This document shows positions 1 to 36,597 of a stretch of 64,000 nt of DNA, piece by piece. Position 1 is the first letter of the stretch. Each line of letters opens with the position of its first letter. The notes below the pieces were generated by a model. It was not told the origin of the DNA, searched no databases, and saw only the letters and a list, made by a program, of their open reading frames with translations. The position numbers were made by a program, and so were the translations under genes. The stretch comes from Candidatus Aenigmatarchaeota archaeon (GTDB lineage Archaea > Aenigmatarchaeota > Aenigmatarchaeia > GW2011-AR5): positions 46,690 through 110,689 of the forward strand of contig JAWCLW010000002.1 in assembly GCA_039091535.1 (NCBI GenBank), read 5' to 3'.

Positions 1-813
1 GCAGGATTACTAGCAAAAAAATTGTTTCAAGGTTCAAATTTTATGATTAAAGTAATATTTGATAAAATTGATTGTACATTCCCTAATAGAAATCCAGAAC
101 CAGAAGAGGATGACCTGATTGCATTAAAAAATAAAATAAAAGAAGAAAAGGCGGACATGGGCATTGCTTATGATGGTGATGGCGATAGAATGCTTATTTT
201 AGATGAAAAAGGGAGAAAACTTACCCCTGAGCAAACATCTTATCTTATTCTTTTAGAAGCAGTTAAAGAAAAAGGGCCTATTGTTGCAAATGTAGAATGC
301 ACAAAACTTATAGATGATATAGCAAAAAAGTTTAATAAAAATATTATACGCTCTCCAGTAGGTCATACATTTCTTGTAAATGCTACAAAGGTACATAATG
401 CATGTTTTGGCCTTGAAGCATCGGGTCACTATGTTTTGCCATTTTTATTTCCATTTGATGATTCGCTTGCTGTAAGCTTATATGCTGCTTATGTGCTTTC
501 AAATACAAATAAAAAATTATCTGAAATTGCCGATGAAGTAAAACCATATCCATTTGAAAGAATAAACTTTAATGTAGACGATAGAAAGAAATTTAAAATA
601 ATAGAAAAATTGATAGTTCGATTTAAAAAAGAATATAAAAATGTTAATACAATGGACGGTATAAGAATCGATTTTGATAATGGTTTTATCCTAATCCGAG
701 CATCGAACACCTCACCAATTATAAGACTAACAGTTGAAGGAAATACAGAAAAAGATTTCATTGAATTAAAAAATAAATTTATGGAAATAATAAAAAATGA
801 AATAAAGAAATAA
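1..813 (+). CDS. alpha-D-phosphohexomutase (phosphoglucosamine/phosphomannomutase family), C-terminal part; the 5' end lies outside the window
   Basis: The frame is open from base 1. It contains the Mg-binding loop GIAYDGDGDR, the sugar-binding GLEASGH motif and the phosphate-binding RASNTSP loop. Confidence 0.85.
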   Translation, partial: AGLLAKKLFQGSNFMIKVIFDKIDCTFPNRNPEPEEDDLIALKNKIKEEKADMGIAYDGDGDRMLILDEKGRKLTPEQTSYLILLEAVKEKGPIVANVECTKLIDDIAKKFNKNIIRSPVGHTFLVNATKVHNACFGLEASGHYVLPFLFPFDDSLAVSLYAAYVLSNTNKKLSEIADEVKPYPFERINFNVDDRKKFKIIEKLIVRFKKEYKNVNTMDGIRIDFDNGFILIRASNTSPIIRLTVEGNTEKDFIELKNKFMEIIKNEIKK

Positions 814-14860: not shown

Positions 14861-15193
14861 ATGTGTTCAAAATATCTTATTGTGATATTTATGGGTCGAA
14901 AAAAAGGCTTTGATAATAAGAAAATAGGTATTATAATATCTATACTTTTAGCAAACCCAGATGGTATATGGTTGAGGAGAATAGCTGAAGAGGCGAAATT
15001 GTCTCCGGCAACAGTAGCACACTACATAGAAACAGTACTTGTGCCTTTTGTGGAGGATGTAAGCATAGGTAAAGAAGGTAAACCATTGTTACGTGTCATA
15101 AGACTCAAACCTTTTGTAGCTGAGAGACTTAAAGAAGGAAAAAGTCTAAATCAAATTATGAAATTCCTTGGAATTTTGAGAAAAATTGAATAA
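14861..15193 (+). CDS. small winged-helix DNA-binding protein (hypothetical)
   Basis: 110 aa with an HTH-like segment, IWLRRIAEEAKLSPATVAHYIE. Confidence 0.45.
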   Translation: MCSKYLIVIFMGRKKGFDNKKIGIIISILLANPDGIWLRRIAEEAKLSPATVAHYIETVLVPFVEDVSIGKEGKPLLRVIRLKPFVAERLKEGKSLNQIMKFLGILRKIE

Positions 15194-15310
15194 TTCGTAA
15201 AAATAAAATTTTAAAATATGTATTTTTAAACCATGAAAAGGCTAAAATTTTGTTTTTTTTATATAAAAATCTAAAAATTTGAAATTTAATTTTTAAAATA
15301 AATAAAAATA

Positions 15311-15690
15311 TACTCACAAAATTTTATTAATTTCTCACGAATAAAAATAGGTTTCGTGAACATTATATGAACATCCGTGAACTTTGTGAACATTTCCGTG
15401 AACATAATATGAATATTAATGAATATATTTTTTGAAGTCTCACAAATTATAATTAAGAAAACAAAAGATCTCACAATTTGGCAAATTTATTCATAAAATA
15501 TTCATAAAATATTCATAAAATATTCATAAAACATATATCATGTTCATATAAATATCTTTATGAATATTCGTGAACTTCATATGAAATTAAAATATTATTT
15601 AAAATATTGTGAATATTTTTGTGAATTTAATGAACATATATAAATTTTTCAAAAAATTTCATGAATAAATATGTGAACTTTATGAAATAA
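15311..15690. repeat. dense array of [G/A]TGAA[C/T] hexamers in both orientations with about 10.5-bp phasing; candidate origin or iteron region
   Basis: Forward copies start at 15356, 15367, 15377, 15386, 15398, 15409 and 15419. Further forward copies start at 15560, 15570, 15581, 15609, 15621, 15630, 15661, 15673 and 15682. Inverted copies include the tandem block and GTTCAT at 15542. A CTCAC[A/G]A variant occurs at 15313, 15334, 15439 and 15470. Confidence 0.85.
15489..15532. repeat. four perfect tandem copies of the 11-bp unit ATTCATAAAAT
   Basis: ATTCAT starts at 15489, 15500, 15511 and 15522, a period of exactly 11 bp. The unit contains the reverse complement of the ATGAAT core. Confidence 0.95.
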
Positions 15691-15726
15691 AAGCTTAAAA
15701 ATACAAAAAAATAAAATAAAACTAAT

Positions 15727-16917
15727 ATGACAGAAAATAATGATATTATACCAATACCAGAATATTTCGAAGAGAATGAGACTACTAAAAAAACCAGTAG
15801 TGAAACACCTATTGAAAAACAAGAAAAACCAATAATTCAGATGCCTAAGACACAAGAAGAAAGTATAAAAAACAATGTTAGATTGTGGTTTAAAAAAATA
15901 GGCTGGAGTGAAAATCCATTTACGTTTAATATATTACCATCACTTTTTGTAGGTTATAAAGAGCAAATAATACGCGCTTTAATGGCCATAGATGAAAAAC
16001 ATAAAATTATTTTTATATCAGGGCCTACGGGTTCTGGGAAAACTACATTTCTAAAATGGATTTCTAATAACATAAATGCAAAAAAATTTGAAATATTTTA
16101 TATTCCTAAACCACCAAAAAGTGCGAATGAATTTGTAGATCTATTTAATAATAGATTTAAAAGTGGCATTTTAAGGTTTTTCTTACCTAACATAAAAAAT
16201 ATTTATCAAATACCGAATTTTATTGAAAGGAAAATAAAAAATAGACATCTAATTATTATGATTGATGAAGTGCATGAATCTGACATAGAAATTTTAGAGT
16301 GGCTTAGAGTTTTGTGCGACCAAGTAAATAATATTTCTATTATAATTTCTGGTCTACCGATTTTTGAAGATAAAATAAGAGACAAGCTAGAAACATTTAG
16401 AAAAAGAATTTCTGTTAGAATAGAGCTTTTATCTCTAACAAAGGAAGAGACAATAGAACTGATAAGAAAAAGAATACAAAATGTGGGTGGCAATGGAAAC
16501 GAATTTGATGATGTTATAGATTTTATATATACAAAAACAGCAGGATTTCCACGTGAGGTTTTGCGTATTTGTGATGAGATTTTAAATAAGGCAATTTCAC
16601 AAGGAACAATAGAAATAACAAAAGATCTACTTGAAGAAGAGGCTAAAGGAGAAATGGTATCAACAACTATTCTCAATGAAATGACACCTATGCAAAGAGA
16701 GATTATCGAGCTACTTGCAAAAGGCCCACAAACACCAGGACAGATAGCGGATTCTATTAACCTAGAAAAATATAAATCAAGACAACATGCTGTGAGGTCT
16801 GTAAATAACATAATGAAAAAACTTTATGAAGATGGTTTTATTGAGAGAAGGAAAGTAGATAAAGCATTTGTTTATTCATTGTCAGGAAGATTAAAAACAA
16901 TTGTTGTAAAAGCATAA
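15727..16917 (+). CDS. AAA+ ATPase with C-terminal winged helix; Orc1/Cdc6-like candidate
   Basis: Walker A GPTGSGKTT and Walker B LIIMIDEVHE. The lid-like AGFPREVLRICDEILNKAI resembles the GDAR-type segment of Orc1/Cdc6. The C-terminal wHTH is MQREIIELLAKGPQTPGQIA...GFIERRKV. An AAA_22/ExeA-type ATPase cannot be excluded by eye. Confidence 0.45.
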   Translation: MTENNDIIPIPEYFEENETTKKTSSETPIEKQEKPIIQMPKTQEESIKNNVRLWFKKIGWSENPFTFNILPSLFVGYKEQIIRALMAIDEKHKIIFISGPTGSGKTTFLKWISNNINAKKFEIFYIPKPPKSANEFVDLFNNRFKSGILRFFLPNIKNIYQIPNFIERKIKNRHLIIMIDEVHESDIEILEWLRVLCDQVNNISIIISGLPIFEDKIRDKLETFRKRISVRIELLSLTKEETIELIRKRIQNVGGNGNEFDDVIDFIYTKTAGFPREVLRICDEILNKAISQGTIEITKDLLEEEAKGEMVSTTILNEMTPMQREIIELLAKGPQTPGQIADSINLEKYKSRQHAVRSVNNIMKKLYEDGFIERRKVDKAFVYSLSGRLKTIVVKA

Positions 16918-16985: not shown

Positions 16986-17258
16986 TTAAACAATCTCTTT
17001 TTCCGAAATTATTACAAAATCACCAATACTTTTCACAGATGAAAATGGAATTAGAAATCTATTATTTTCATCTTTCTCTAATGTTAAATCACTCACATGT
17101 TTTGTAGGTTCTACAAGGACAATATTTAAAAGTTCACCACTATCGGCTATAAAATTTATATCACCAACAACACCAAATTTTCTTCCAGTCTCTTCTGAAA
17201 CAACAATTTTACCTATAACATCTTTACCTCTACTTTTAATCATTATATCACCTCTCAT
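16986..17258 (-). CDS. PRC-barrel domain protein
   Basis: 90 aa with the pattern VIGKIVVSEETGRKFGVVGDINF...IPFSSVKSIGDFVII. Confidence 0.6.
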   Translation of the reverse strand: MRGDIMIKSRGKDVIGKIVVSEETGRKFGVVGDINFIADSGELLNIVLVEPTKHVSDLTLEKDENNRFLIPFSSVKSIGDFVIISEKEIV

Positions 17259-19554: not shown

Positions 19555-19839
19555 AATTTATTTTATCTTTTTTATTTACTTAAAATCTTCTGTATAAATT
19601 TTGTGAGTGTTAATTTATTTACTACAAATAATTTTTTTTAAAAAATATTATTTAAAAAATTTTTTACTTAATATTTTTTTTAGTATATAAATATTATATA
19701 TAAAATATTTTACGAAATAAATATTTTAATATATATTAAAATTTATATTTATTTTGTACGTTTATATCTAACATAAACAATTGATTGAATTTATAAAAAA
19801 TTATTTAAAGTAGGAAATGTATAAGAAATATAGATTAAA

Positions 19840-20136
19840 ATGATAGAAAAAATGGAATTAGATGAATTATTTTTGAGAAAGAAGCCTGTTAAATTATTAT
19901 TAAATATAAAAATTGGAAATTCTCCAAAATATGTTTCTGTTCTTGCAAAAGAAACAGATTGTACCTATTCTCATACTGTAAAGCTTTTGGAACTTTTTAA
20001 AAATTTGGGCATAGTAGATTTTGAAAAACATGGAAGAATAAAGTTTGTAAAACTTACAGAAGATGGTATTAGCCTGGCAAATGATTTTGAATCTGTAATG
20101 AGGAAATTTTCAAAACTTAAACCAAAGAAAAAATAA
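19840..20136 (+). CDS. small winged-helix transcription regulator (hypothetical)
   Basis: 98 aa with YVSVLAKETDCTYSHTVKLLELFKNLGIVDF...GRIKFVKLTEDG (wHTH pattern). Confidence 0.5.
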   Translation: MIEKMELDELFLRKKPVKLLLNIKIGNSPKYVSVLAKETDCTYSHTVKLLELFKNLGIVDFEKHGRIKFVKLTEDGISLANDFESVMRKFSKLKPKKK

Positions 20137-21775: not shown

Positions 21776-22108
21776 TCAATTTTTAATCAATTTACGCAAT
21801 TTTTTATGTTAGAGATAATTATTATTTAAATAAATTATTAAATATATATTATAAAAAATATATTGTTAAAGATTTTATAAAAAATATTTTATAAATAAAA
21901 TATATTAAATTAAATCAATTTAAAAATATATTTTGTGGTTATATTAATATACTATGTTAAAAATATATTACATAATATCTATTAAAATATATTTAATTTT
22001 AAATATATTTTATATAATACAAATGAAACACTCATCAATTGTGAGAGTTTAAGTTGAATACTATATTATATGGATAGAAATTAAATCTTTATTATCTGAT
22101 TAAATTTT

Positions 22109-24985: not shown

Positions 24986-25023
24986 AAAAAGAATTAGTTT
25001 AGAAAAATATAAAAGATAATTAT

Positions 25024-25108
25024 AGCCCCGGCAGGATTCGAACCTACGTCAACTGGTTTCTTCCAATTGACCAGAGCCAGTTATGCTTGTCCGCTACACC
25101 ACGGGGCT
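25024..25108 (-). tRNA. tRNA-Gln(CUG) with a 13-nt intron at the canonical 37/38 position
   Basis: The reverse complement reads AGCCCCG-TG-GTGT-AGCGGACAA-GCAT-A-ACTGG-[CTCTGG+TCAATTGGAAGAA+A]-CCAGT-TGAC-GTAGG-TTCGAAT-CCTGC-CGGGGCT. The acceptor stem has all 7 pairs. Confidence 0.85.
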
Positions 25109-25681: not shown

Positions 25682-27436
25682 ATGAAAGCTGATGAATTGA
25701 AAAAAAAATATATAGAATTTTTTAAAGAAAAAAATCATAAAGAAATACCGAATGTATCACTTATTCCTGAGCATGACCCAACTGTTTTATTCACAACAGC
25801 AGGCATGCATCCTCTTGTACCATTTTTACTTGGTCAAGAACATCCATTAGGGAAGAGACTTGTTAATGTTCAAAGATGTCTTAGAACCGATGATATAGAT
25901 GAAATTGGTGATAACTTTCATCTAACATTTTTTGAAATGCTTGGAAATTGGAGTCTTGGAGACTACTTCAAAAGAGAAGCAATAGAATATGCATATGAAT
26001 TTCTCACAGACAAAAAATGGCTCAATCTCGACCCTGAAAAAATGAATATAACTGTTTTCGCAGGAGATAAAGATGCTCCACGTGATGATGAATCTGCAAA
26101 AATATGGATGAATTTAGGTATTCCAAAAGAAAAGATTTTTTACAATCCAAAAAGGGACAATTGGTGGGGTCCTGCTGGAAAGACTGGGCCATGCGGTCCT
26201 GATACAGAAATATTTTTTGACACAGGTAAAGAAAAATGTTCAAAAGATTGTAGACCAGGATGCAACTGTGGAAAATATAATGAAATATGGAATTTAGTTT
26301 TTATGGAATATAATAAAACAAACGAAAGTAAATATGAATTATTAAAACAGAAAAATGTTGATACGGGAATGGGAGTTGAACGTACATGTGCAATTTTACA
26401 AAAAAAGAACAATATATATGAAACAGAATTATTTATACCAATAATAAAAAAGATAAGAGAGATTTCAAACAAGATAAATATAAAATCTGAGAGGATTGTT
26501 GCAGACCATATGCGTGCTGCTGTTTTTATTCTTGGCGATGAACGAGCAATAACACCTTCAAACCTCGGCCAGGGTTATATACTAAGAAGACTTATAAGAA
26601 GGGCTATAAGGCATGCAAGATTGCTTGGTATAGAGGAAAATTTTTGCGTAGATATTTCAAAAATTATAATAAATACGTATAAGAAAAATTATTCTATTTT
26701 GAAAAAAAATAAAGAATTTATTATAAATGAAATAGAAAAAGAAGAAAATCGTTTCAAAAAGATGTTGGAAATAGGAATAAATAAGTTTGAGGAATTGAAA
26801 CCAAAAAATAATATAATTAGTGGAAAGGATGCGTTTTTATTATATTCATCATATGGTTTTCCAATAGAAATGACAGAAGAACTTGCAGCTGAAAAAAATT
26901 TAGTTGTTGACAAAAAAGGGTTTGAAGAAGAGTTCAGAAAACATCAGGAATTAAGTAGAAAAAGTATGGAAGGTATTTTTAAAAGCGGTTTGATGGATCA
27001 TAGTGAAAAAACAATAAAATATCATACAGCAACACATTTATTACATCAAGCATTAAGAGAAGTTTTAGGATCAGATGTAATGCAAAAAGGAAGTAATATA
27101 ACACCTGAAAGATTAAGATTTGATTTTTCATTTAATAGAAAAATGACTGATACAGAAATAAAAAGAGTTGAAGATATTGTAAATGAAAAAATTGAAGAAG
27201 GTCTTGATGTTAAAAGGGAAGAAATGAGTCTAAAAGAAGCAAAAAAATCAGGTGCTCTTGGTTTTTTTGAATCTAAGTATGGTGAAAAGGTTTCTGTTTA
27301 TAGTATAGGAAATTTTTCAAAAGAGATATGTGCAGGTCCACATGTAAAAAATACAAAAGAACTTGGTAGATTTAAGATTTTGAAAGAGGAAGCTGTTTCT
27401 TCAGGTATTAGGAGAATAAAGGCTATATTAATATGA
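25682..27436 (+). CDS. alaS: alanyl-tRNA synthetase, bacterial-type, short form (catalytic plus editing domains, no C-Ala domain)
   Basis: Contains DPTVLFTTAGM, HLTFFEMLGNWSLGDYF, GPCGPDTEIF and VDTGMGVERT, plus the editing-site HTATHLLHQAL and CAGPHV. The protein ends at 584 aa. Confidence 0.85.
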   Translation: MKADELKKKYIEFFKEKNHKEIPNVSLIPEHDPTVLFTTAGMHPLVPFLLGQEHPLGKRLVNVQRCLRTDDIDEIGDNFHLTFFEMLGNWSLGDYFKREAIEYAYEFLTDKKWLNLDPEKMNITVFAGDKDAPRDDESAKIWMNLGIPKEKIFYNPKRDNWWGPAGKTGPCGPDTEIFFDTGKEKCSKDCRPGCNCGKYNEIWNLVFMEYNKTNESKYELLKQKNVDTGMGVERTCAILQKKNNIYETELFIPIIKKIREISNKINIKSERIVADHMRAAVFILGDERAITPSNLGQGYILRRLIRRAIRHARLLGIEENFCVDISKIIINTYKKNYSILKKNKEFIINEIEKEENRFKKMLEIGINKFEELKPKNNIISGKDAFLLYSSYGFPIEMTEELAAEKNLVVDKKGFEEEFRKHQELSRKSMEGIFKSGLMDHSEKTIKYHTATHLLHQALREVLGSDVMQKGSNITPERLRFDFSFNRKMTDTEIKRVEDIVNEKIEEGLDVKREEMSLKEAKKSGALGFFESKYGEKVSVYSIGNFSKEICAGPHVKNTKELGRFKILKEEAVSSGIRRIKAILI

Positions 27437-36506: not shown

Positions 36507-36597
36507 GGGCGCGTAGCTCAGCTTGGATAGAGCATCTATCAAATCGAGTGCAAGCCTTCTAAGCAGAGGGTCGCGGGTTCGAATCCCGTCGCGCCCA
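36507..36597 (+). tRNA. tRNA-Arg(UCU) with a 16-nt intron inside the 5' strand of the anticodon stem (about position 29/30)
   Basis: GGGCGCG-TA-GCTC-AGCTTGGATA-GAGC-A-TCT[ATCAAATCGAGTGCAA]GC-CTTCTAA-GCAGA-GGGTC-GCGGG-TTCGAAT-CCCGT-CGCGCCC-A. The anticodon stem pairs only after the 16 nt are removed. Confidence 0.75.

Follow-up and report, generated by a model that had tools for sequence, protein, structure and literature searches.

The 64,000 nt of contig JAWCLW010000002.1 analysed here (the window; 28.6% G + C, from a Candidatus Aenigmatarchaeota archaeon) contain a 533 bp spacer, positions 15194–15726, between a small helix-turn-helix (HTH) protein gene and the gene for a 396 amino acid (aa) ATPase (AAA396), and this spacer is packed with copies of one short motif, [GA]TGAA[CT]. 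The array had been put forward, from its sequence, as a candidate replication origin beside an Orc1/Cdc6-like gene (the original prediction). The observation is real and stronger than first described: the array exists, is phased with the DNA helix, is unique in the DNA that surrounds it and is conserved throughout the phylum. The reading that we tentatively favor, short of real confidence, is that it is a multi-site assembly platform for AAA396, an ExeA-like AAA+ ATPase with a winged helix encoded immediately downstream, in an origin-proximal complex with a centromere-like or organizing role; the small HTH protein encoded upstream may help at the array.

A strict scan of both strands finds 19 copies of [GA]TGAA[CT] in the spacer, where 2000 dinucleotide-preserving shuffles give an expectation of 2.9 ± 1.6 and a maximum of 9. 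The window-wide mean is 1.5 copies per 533 bp and the second-densest place in the window holds 6, and the array is the single dense site of this motif in the 64 kb. The copies fall into three blocks (Table 1). Block A has direct units at all seven of the starts originally listed, spaced by 11, 10, 9, 12, 11 and 10 bp. The four perfect 11 bp TATTCATAAAA units of block B, with the motif on the opposite strand, were recovered by Tandem Repeats Finder (TRF; 15488–15531, period 11, 4.0 copies, 100% match), and the inverted GTTCAT that follows them is present. Nine further direct copies had been claimed for what we call block C; seven of these fit the strict pattern (starts 15560, 15570, 15609, 15621, 15630, 15661 and 15673), but the other two, at 15581 and 15682, are ATGAAA near-copies outside it. 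CTCAC[A/G]A variants flank block A as described. The proposed helical-turn phasing is borne out by Rayleigh R at 10.5 bp, which reaches 0.93 in block A and 0.95 in the inverted one. The spacer also looks non-coding, as had been thought: its open reading frames (ORFs) are of 53–68 aa only, an Rfam scan of the window matched no family in it (the only matches were two tRNAs elsewhere), and in relatives only the motif cores are conserved.

The array in other Aenigmatarchaeota was surveyed with one genome per GTDB species, which gave 72 loci in 72 assemblies (one each, 28–52% G + C), of which 66 have enough upstream DNA for array statistics. The region from −750 to +50 of the ATPase gene has a median of 22 GTGAA/TTCAC cores (range 2–37), against a flank background of 1.7 per 800 bp, and this density is not a composition effect because it is kept across the 28–52% G + C range. 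The repeats are thus present at orthologous loci, and the densest 600 bp window of cores adjoins the ATPase gene in 63 of the 66. It begins ~1.1 kb upstream in the other three, and in two of these, L060 and L061, an apparent inserted ORF intervenes. This coding insert between array and ATPase gene (L060:5350–5990 and L061:3800–4440) has a translation that resembles a LAGLIDADG homing endonuclease by eye; the two contigs are identical across the 680 bp shown, and L061, which is filed under a bacterial (Aminicenantia) bin, is thus probably mis-binned.

The consensus site in the relatives is (C)GTGAA(C/T)(A)T, the dyads TTCACGTGAA and GTGAAnnTTCAC are common, and the TATTCATAAAA units of block B are the AT-rich counterpart of the relatives' CCTTCACAAAA units. 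Same-strand spacings pooled over the loci peak at 11, 21–22, 31–33, 42 and 52 bp with nearly no counts between, which is a 10.5 bp lattice. Chains of at least three cores number 183 within the array zones versus 7 in 684 kb of flanking DNA (and some of the 7 are array extensions), and the TTCACGTGAA palindrome occurs 191 times within the zones versus 3 times in the flanks. The only further phased cluster found in the window or these flanks has three sites and occurs in L012–L014. That secondary cluster (L012:4020–4046, L013:3926–3952 and L014:1634–1657) consists of three GTGAA cores ~1.9–2.0 kb upstream of the ATPase gene in these related genomes only, with an 11 bp core spacing in L012 and L013.

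The layout of the array is also shared by many lineages: an AT-rich tract is followed by two CTCAC copies and a block of direct units, and then by one to three CTCAC copies, an opposite-strand block, a mixed block and the promoter. When five related arrays were aligned (L007, L013, L014, L024 and L027), conservation was limited to the cores, the CTCACAA copies, whose position does not vary, and a TATA-like CTTTTTAAGCC ~30 nt before the ATG, and repeat units had been gained or lost in steps of roughly 10–40 bp. CTTTTTAAGCC is the homologue of CTTAAAAATA in the window, is invariant in the five relatives and lies at an equal distance from the ATG; CTTAAAAATA is the probable promoter of the ATPase gene. 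The same five relatives, at ~50% G + C, have 80–100 bp of at least 70–80% AT at the position of the AT-rich tract, which could be an unwinding region or merely a terminator plus spacer.

As had been stated, AAA396 joins an AAA+ ATPase module to a winged helix at the C-terminus, according to Pfam and an AlphaFold2 (AF2) model. Pfam finds AAA_22 in it (3.7e-13, 50.4 bits versus a cutoff of 27), and the best NCBIfam match is TIGR03015 (PEP-CTERM-associated ATPase; 4.9e-22, 78.6 bits, which does not reach the equivalog cutoff of 324); WHD_Cdc6, Cdc6_lid and TIGR02928 were not matched in Pfam and NCBIfam. PDB sequence and profile searches gave only uninformative P-loop matches. Comparison by hhalign with 26 Orc1/Cdc6 proteins (mostly from Aenigmatarchaeota, four from other DPANN groups) gave a probability of 34% over the AAA+ region only, and a weak BLAST match to one haloarchaeal Orc1 is collinear through the winged helix with 22% identity over 318 aligned positions (recognition helices RSVNNIMKKL in AAA396 and RTVRNYCSKL in the Orc1). 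The AF2 model (predicted local distance difference test, pLDDT, 82) shows the protein as AAA+ base, lid and winged helix, and its top 20 PDB matches in Foldseek are all Orc1/Cdc6/ORC (best 1w5t_A, 4.8e-14; also 2qby, 1fnn and 2v1u), followed by clamp loaders, RuvB, SSO1545 and MuB. The predicted Orc1/Cdc6 likeness of this neighbor therefore holds for the three-domain fold but not for the sequence. AAA396 has an Orc1/Cdc6-like architecture, but judged by its sequence it lies outside the Orc1/Cdc6 family, and its ATPase module groups with the ExeA/GspA-like AAA_22 and PEP-CTERM-type ATPases, a family without known initiators.

In an alignment of 28 AAA396 sequences (49–64% identity) the N-terminal W..GW..NPF motif, Walker A GPTGSGKT, Walker B D180–E181, R227, the GFPR motif and R276 are invariant, and so is the recognition helix YK.RQHAVRS.NN (Y349, K350, R352–S358, N360 and N361). 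The protein has diverged as much as RPA has (median identity 49% vs 50%) and its gene is single-copy in the 72 assemblies. NCBI holds a protein with 100% identity to AAA396, from a Candidatus Aenigmatarchaeota metagenome-assembled genome (MAG). Over 500 homologs reach E ≤ 0.001, of which the organism-named ones within the best 120 are all from Aenigmatarchaeota. A profile search of 1.84 billion representatives gave 9,990 matches at E ≤ 1e-10, many of the listed ones covering the ATPase module only; 109 representatives reach E ≤ 1e-30. The nearest out-group of that module (P0166, P0167, P0172 and P0183, E ~1e-50 to 1e-61) carries N-terminal transmembrane, zinc-ribbon or TPR extensions and lacks the winged helix, so the ATPase core is also used in membrane-anchored proteins. 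Bacterial plasmid-borne relatives show 25–30% identity (E down to 4e-16) and their genes lie in polysaccharide (EPS) loci; viral contigs contained no real AAA396 homolog, and the module is for that reason not evidently of mobile-element origin. The public names of the family (NCBI 'ATPase, T2SS/T4P/T4SS family' and 'Flp pilus assembly complex ATPase component TadA', JGI 'ExeA') appear to be misnomers that stem from generic P-loop similarity.

A canonical origin is present elsewhere in these genomes. When L068 was searched by tblastn with a haloarchaeal Orc1, a canonical orc1/cdc6 gene turned up 1.5 kb downstream of its ATPase ortholog, and many Aenigmatarchaeota MAGs have homologs of this gene annotated as orc1/cdc6 or Cdc6. 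On several contigs that carry both genes, inverted TTTCCAnnnGAAAnnnnGGGG origin recognition boxes (ORBs) around a very AT-rich stretch of about 200–300 bp precede the canonical gene, and a DP1-like Metallophos_2 gene and then PolB come after it, which fits the report that Aenigmatarchaeota keep DP1 and lack DP2, an unusual replisome (PMC12680538). TTTCCAn(2-4)GAAA-type boxes are present at the canonical loci L077, L081, L083, L085 and L068; this pattern has no match in 15194–15726, and the window as a whole has just one, within a gene at 26858. The canonical origin regions in turn hold only 0–2 GTGAA cores each. No orc1/cdc6 gene is encoded in the window; on this contig (119,816 bp) it is MEM7819504.1, to the left of the window and 26 genes from AAA396 (MEM7819530.1), at a distance from the array of about 25 kb as estimated from accession order. 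Distances computed from record coordinates on other contigs bring the overall range to 1.5–30 kb (Table 1), and on four longer contigs the ATPase and orc1/cdc6 genes point away from each other. GC and AT skew in the window follow gene strand, and the skew at four-fold sites, taken separately by gene strand and with few G/C sites, does not switch at 15.5 kb. Because the canonical orc1/cdc6 with its ORBs sits at a separate locus, the array is not the lineage's recognizable origin; as far as sequence features tell, it is distinct from that origin but stays near it. The original prediction's reading of the repeats as iteron-like initiator sites thus survives in part: conserved, phased and unique in the window, the array looks like an iteron-like protein-binding site, but its role as an origin is largely unsupported with the canonical one elsewhere.

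We infer the binding protein, filament formation, autoregulation and the biological role along the following lines. Each winged helix would read one (C)GTGAA core, and cores every 10–11 bp would place the protomers all on one DNA face. The AAA+ domains would touch one another in an ATP-dependent manner through the conserved arginine and the ATP site, and a continuous filament would result, like that of DnaA on phased boxes. Two opposed arrays, bounded by the CTCAC variants, would form in this way, and the complex on block C would occlude or activate the promoter of the ATPase gene; since the third block runs into the TATA box of that gene, the complex should also set the gene's expression. This assembly-platform reading is favored by the invariant recognition helix of the ATPase, which parallels the invariant DNA core across the phylum. 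A role as a centromere-like or chromosome-organizing complex near the origin seems most likely, and we rank it first by analogy because a single, large, phased, origin-proximal site with HTH and NTPase genes and promoter overlap recalls iteron-type centromeres and parS.

More distant AAA_22 plus winged-helix relatives of AAA396 have no upstream HTH gene and have other short repeats before their own genes: ATG[GT]AG at 10–11 bp spacing in L088:2633–3047 and twice, 10 bp apart, in L089:4879–4897 (the L088 and L089 proteins have a different helix in common), TAG[AT]CA pairs exactly 13 bp apart in L092:3663–3920, and TAACA repeats in L091:3437–3945. This suggests, as far as such short repeats can be read, that recognition motifs are specific to each subfamily. 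Since these homologs have their own repeats and no HTH neighbor, self-locus binding as a trait of the ATPase family is supported.

Several points weigh against the ATPase platform and its centromere-like role. That the ATPase is the binder would follow from adjacency and parallel conservation; the motif is constant throughout the phylum and the recognition helix likewise, which leaves no covariation between them to read, and the HTH protein encoded upstream is as well placed to be the binder. The uniqueness of the array holds for the 64 kb window and ~12 kb flanks. Before the distant homologs, repeats are enriched only modestly (shuffle fractions for the top 6-mer of 0.09, 0.002 and 0.02). AAA+ ATPases are not known to act as partition motors, and nothing of the ParA, ParM or TubZ type is among the neighboring genes scanned against Pfam.

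The known systems that the array most resembles also differ from it. Plasmid centromeres can be built of phased iterons, as in R1 parC with its 11 bp repeats and ParR, or pBtoxis tubC with the winged-helix TubR and TubZ, and bacterial chromosomal parS sites are origin-proximal, like the array. With parC and tubC it shares clusters of at least ten short, phased repeats, genes downstream of them that encode a small DNA-binding protein and an NTPase, promoter overlap and one site per replicon, but its NTPase is an AAA+ protein with a DNA-binding domain of its own, not of the ParA, ParM or TubZ type, and the array is chromosomal and archaeal, with a partition role that would follow from likeness. 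In E. coli oriC, opposed arrays of low-affinity DnaA boxes with an 11 bp period guide the DnaA filament; our array likewise has two opposed arrays of short sites with one site per helical turn, and its putative reader, also an AAA+ protein, binds DNA through a domain of its own and has a conserved arginine for contacts between protomers. They differ in domain of life, motif and protein family (ExeA-like winged helix versus DnaA domain IV), and the array is not its genome's recognizable origin and is known here from sequence rather than from unwinding. Archaeal oriC regions with ORBs or mini-ORBs (Pyrococcus, Methanothermobacter and Sulfolobus) are similar in their long, repeat-packed intergenic region upstream of an AAA+/winged-helix gene, their repeats in both orientations, nearby AT-rich tract and surrounding replication genes, and multiple 13 bp mini-ORBs of M. 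thermautotrophicus are bound cooperatively (PMC1904270). The array is unlike them in its motif (GTGAA rather than TTCCA...GGAA plus a G-string, with only the outer TTC...GAA in common), its strict ~10.5 bp phasing, its ExeA-like neighbor by sequence, and the separate true ORB/orc1 locus. In the ~50% G + C relatives the AT-rich tract is at the left edge of the array and not between opposed blocks, and it could belong to a terminator or promoter. The closest sequence family of AAA396, the ExeA/GspA and XrtA/PEP-CTERM ATPases (COG3267, AAA_22 and TIGR03015), shares even the N-terminal W..GW..NPF-type motif, but its bacterial members are ~290 aa long and belong to polysaccharide or secretion loci, and the alignments end before the winged helix of AAA396; AAA396 has a Cdc6-like winged helix, not a membrane or peptidoglycan-binding domain, at its C-terminus, and it has a DNA array and LigT, HTH, PRC-barrel, RadA and RPA neighbors.

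Our search of the literature found nothing on the array or this ATPase family. The general kind, an iteron array with a cognate oligomerizing ATPase, is known; the protein scaffold, the motif, its phasing and its fixed relation to the canonical archaeal origin are, within the literature searched, new. A bolder version of the platform reading, possible but doubtful in our view, is that these elements are an unrecognized chromosome-maintenance module in which an ExeA-type AAA+ ATPase with a Cdc6-like winged helix polymerizes in DnaA fashion on ~20 phased pentamers into a single origin-proximal complex and acts as a centromere or organizer or as a second, non-Orc initiator; a smaller form of the module would occur in other archaea with related proteins. 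If the ATPase does polymerize on phased sites, the DnaA-style solution would have evolved a second time, independently, with an ExeA-type AAA+ protein as the scaffold. In most archaea little is understood of how chromosomes are segregated and replication is controlled, and in uncultured DPANN essentially nothing is. A phylum-conserved, precisely defined pair of cis-element and protein, with a simple motif, strict phasing and a fixed place with respect to the canonical origin, makes these processes directly accessible to experiment. The result also corrects the database names of the ATPase family, and it warns that repeats beside an AAA+/winged-helix gene are not by themselves sufficient to call an origin.

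Could the array nonetheless be a second or auxiliary origin, with AAA396 as a dedicated initiator that oligomerizes on the phased sites and opens 15194–15310 for MCM loading? Such a unit would resemble the origin-plus-own-initiator modules of multi-origin archaea, but we think it unlikely. The whole-length Orc1/Cdc6 fold with its uniform top 20 structural matches, the collinear Orc1 alignment through the winged helix, and the conserved place of an AT-rich tract beside the array in the ~50% G + C relatives all argue for it; opposed arrays are typical of origins, and RadA, RPA and histone are conserved neighbors. A dyad, TTCACGTGAAC, is also loosely like TTCCAGTGGAAC, the mini-ORB of Pyrococcus, in which TTCC and GAA are conserved (PMC1904270). 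However, a complete canonical origin lies 1.5–30 kb away in the same genomes and another one so close would add little, the ATPase is ExeA-like by sequence with an indifferent hhalign score even against the lineage's own Orc1/Cdc6, the inter-array spacer is not markedly AT-rich in L013 (~50% G + C, read directly), and no homolog was found on viral contigs. That the window genes mostly converge on the array, and that the four-fold-site skew, with its small counts, does not switch there, are weak arguments in the same direction.

It is distinctly unlikely, to our minds, that the array is just an oversized autoregulatory operator, in which case the ATPase would regulate transcription, perhaps that of nearby recombination and replication genes, and the array would tune only the promoter of the regulator itself. 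The last sites abut the conserved TATA-like box, the few paired repeats before the distant homologs' own genes are typical of autoregulators, RadA and RPA are conserved neighbors, and an Orc1/Cdc6 paralog, Orc1-2, is reported to act as a DNA-damage transcription regulator in Sulfolobales (PMC6061795). But 15–37 sites over 500–600 bp are far beyond a promoter's needs and most lie 100–600 bp upstream of the TATA box, and no clusters precede RadA, RPA or other genes in the 684 kb of flanks, bar the three-site cluster in three related genomes.

The main binder might also be another protein, either the upstream 100 aa HTH protein or the canonical Orc1/Cdc6, with the ATPase only a regulated or recruited partner; an HTH centromere-binding protein with an NTPase would parallel TubR-tubC-TubZ. 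We judge this very unlikely. The HTH protein (wHTH110; 100 aa from its probable start, a 110 aa ORF as listed, with a weak Pfam HTH_24 match) has BLAST orthologs at 44 loci, 40 of them same-strand, at a median of ~880 bp before the ATPase gene, and every lineage, even the most divergent ones, L068 and L046, preserves the order HTH gene, array, ATPase gene. In plasmid partition systems, phased iterons are as a rule coated by small HTH or ribbon-helix-helix proteins. On the other hand, the recognition helix of the HTH protein is far less conserved than the DNA core (in the putative helix T41 is the sole invariant residue and Y45 is at least 90% conserved), and distant ATPase homologs have repeats but no HTH neighbor. 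As for Orc1/Cdc6, the outer TTC...GAA of the dyad is common to ORBs (PMC1904270), but the ORB consensus TTTCCAnnnGAAAnnnnGGGG of the same genomes is clearly different and their origin regions are poor in GTGAA cores, and we consider canonical Orc1 an unlikely reader of the array. A sole, highly divergent Orc1/Cdc6 was once proposed for Methanococcales (PMC3914693); that AAA396 is such a protein is rejected by the canonical orc1/cdc6 beside the L068 ortholog and on five further contigs including this one.

Table 1. Features of the array and its genes in the window, canonical ORB regions in related genomes, and distances between array and canonical orc1/cdc6.
Feature	Position or distance	Strand	Basis or remark
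Small HTH protein gene (wHTH110)	14891..15193	+	probable start is the MGRKKG methionine; listed ORF starts 14861
AT-rich tract, left array edge	15194..15310		read from sequence
Two CTCAC[A/G]A variants, left bound of block A	15313–15319 and 15334–15339	−	read from sequence
Block A, seven direct [GA]TGAA[CT] units, starts 15356, 15367, 15377, 15386, 15398, 15409, 15419	15356..15424	+	motif scan
Two CTCACAA copies, spacer of opposed blocks	15439–15445 and 15470–15476	−	read from sequence
Block B, four perfect 11 bp TATTCATAAAA units and GTTCAT at 15542	15488..15547	−	TRF; motif on opposite strand
Block C, seven strict direct units, two ATGAAA near-copies and short dyads, up to promoter	15560..15688	+	
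TATA-like element CTTAAAAATA, 24–33 nt before ATG	15694..15703	+	read from sequence
ExeA-like AAA+ ATPase with C-terminal winged helix, 396 aa (AAA396)	15727..16917	+	Pfam, alignment, AF2
AAA396 features	Walker A residues 99–106; Walker B D180–E181; arginines R227 and R276; winged helix ~318–396		
Canonical ORB region	L081:2441–2780		
Canonical ORB region	L077:9674–9850		
Canonical ORB region	L083:2800–2900		
Canonical ORB region	L085:2695–2905		
Canonical ORB region	L068:8467–8575		
Array to orc1/cdc6, L068	about 1.5–3 kb		
Array to orc1/cdc6, JACPAH010000003.1	about 13 kb		
Array to orc1/cdc6, Ga0434947_000142	about 19.5 kb		
Array to orc1/cdc6, JANQNA010000007.1	about 26 kb		
Array to orc1/cdc6, JACPAG010000001.1	about 30 kb		

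The gene neighborhood of the array is itself conserved, with LigT, the HTH gene, the array, the ATPase gene, a PRC-barrel gene, RadA, RPA, histone and a second HTH gene in synteny; in the window Pfam confirms the RadA, RPA and Ssb-like OB-fold proteins that had been noted nearby, and the histone is there too. The PRC-barrel gene (16986–17258, minus strand) is directly downstream of the ATPase gene and convergent with it, and its median identity across loci, 71%, is well above that of most neighbors; the PRC-barrel domain family is tied to archaeal cell division.

A second winged-helix gene (98 aa, 19840–20136) has a median identity across loci of 72%, and AT-rich tandem repeats that include a 46 bp unit present twice lie upstream of it at 19612–19739. 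Farther along, ~15 degenerate copies of a 14 bp AT-rich unit occupy 21820–22019, between a 173 aa gene and a radical-SAM gene. The two tRNA matches, at 25023–25108 (minus strand) and 36507–36597 (plus strand), are 86 and 91 nt long against a model of 71 positions; these tRNAs may contain introns.

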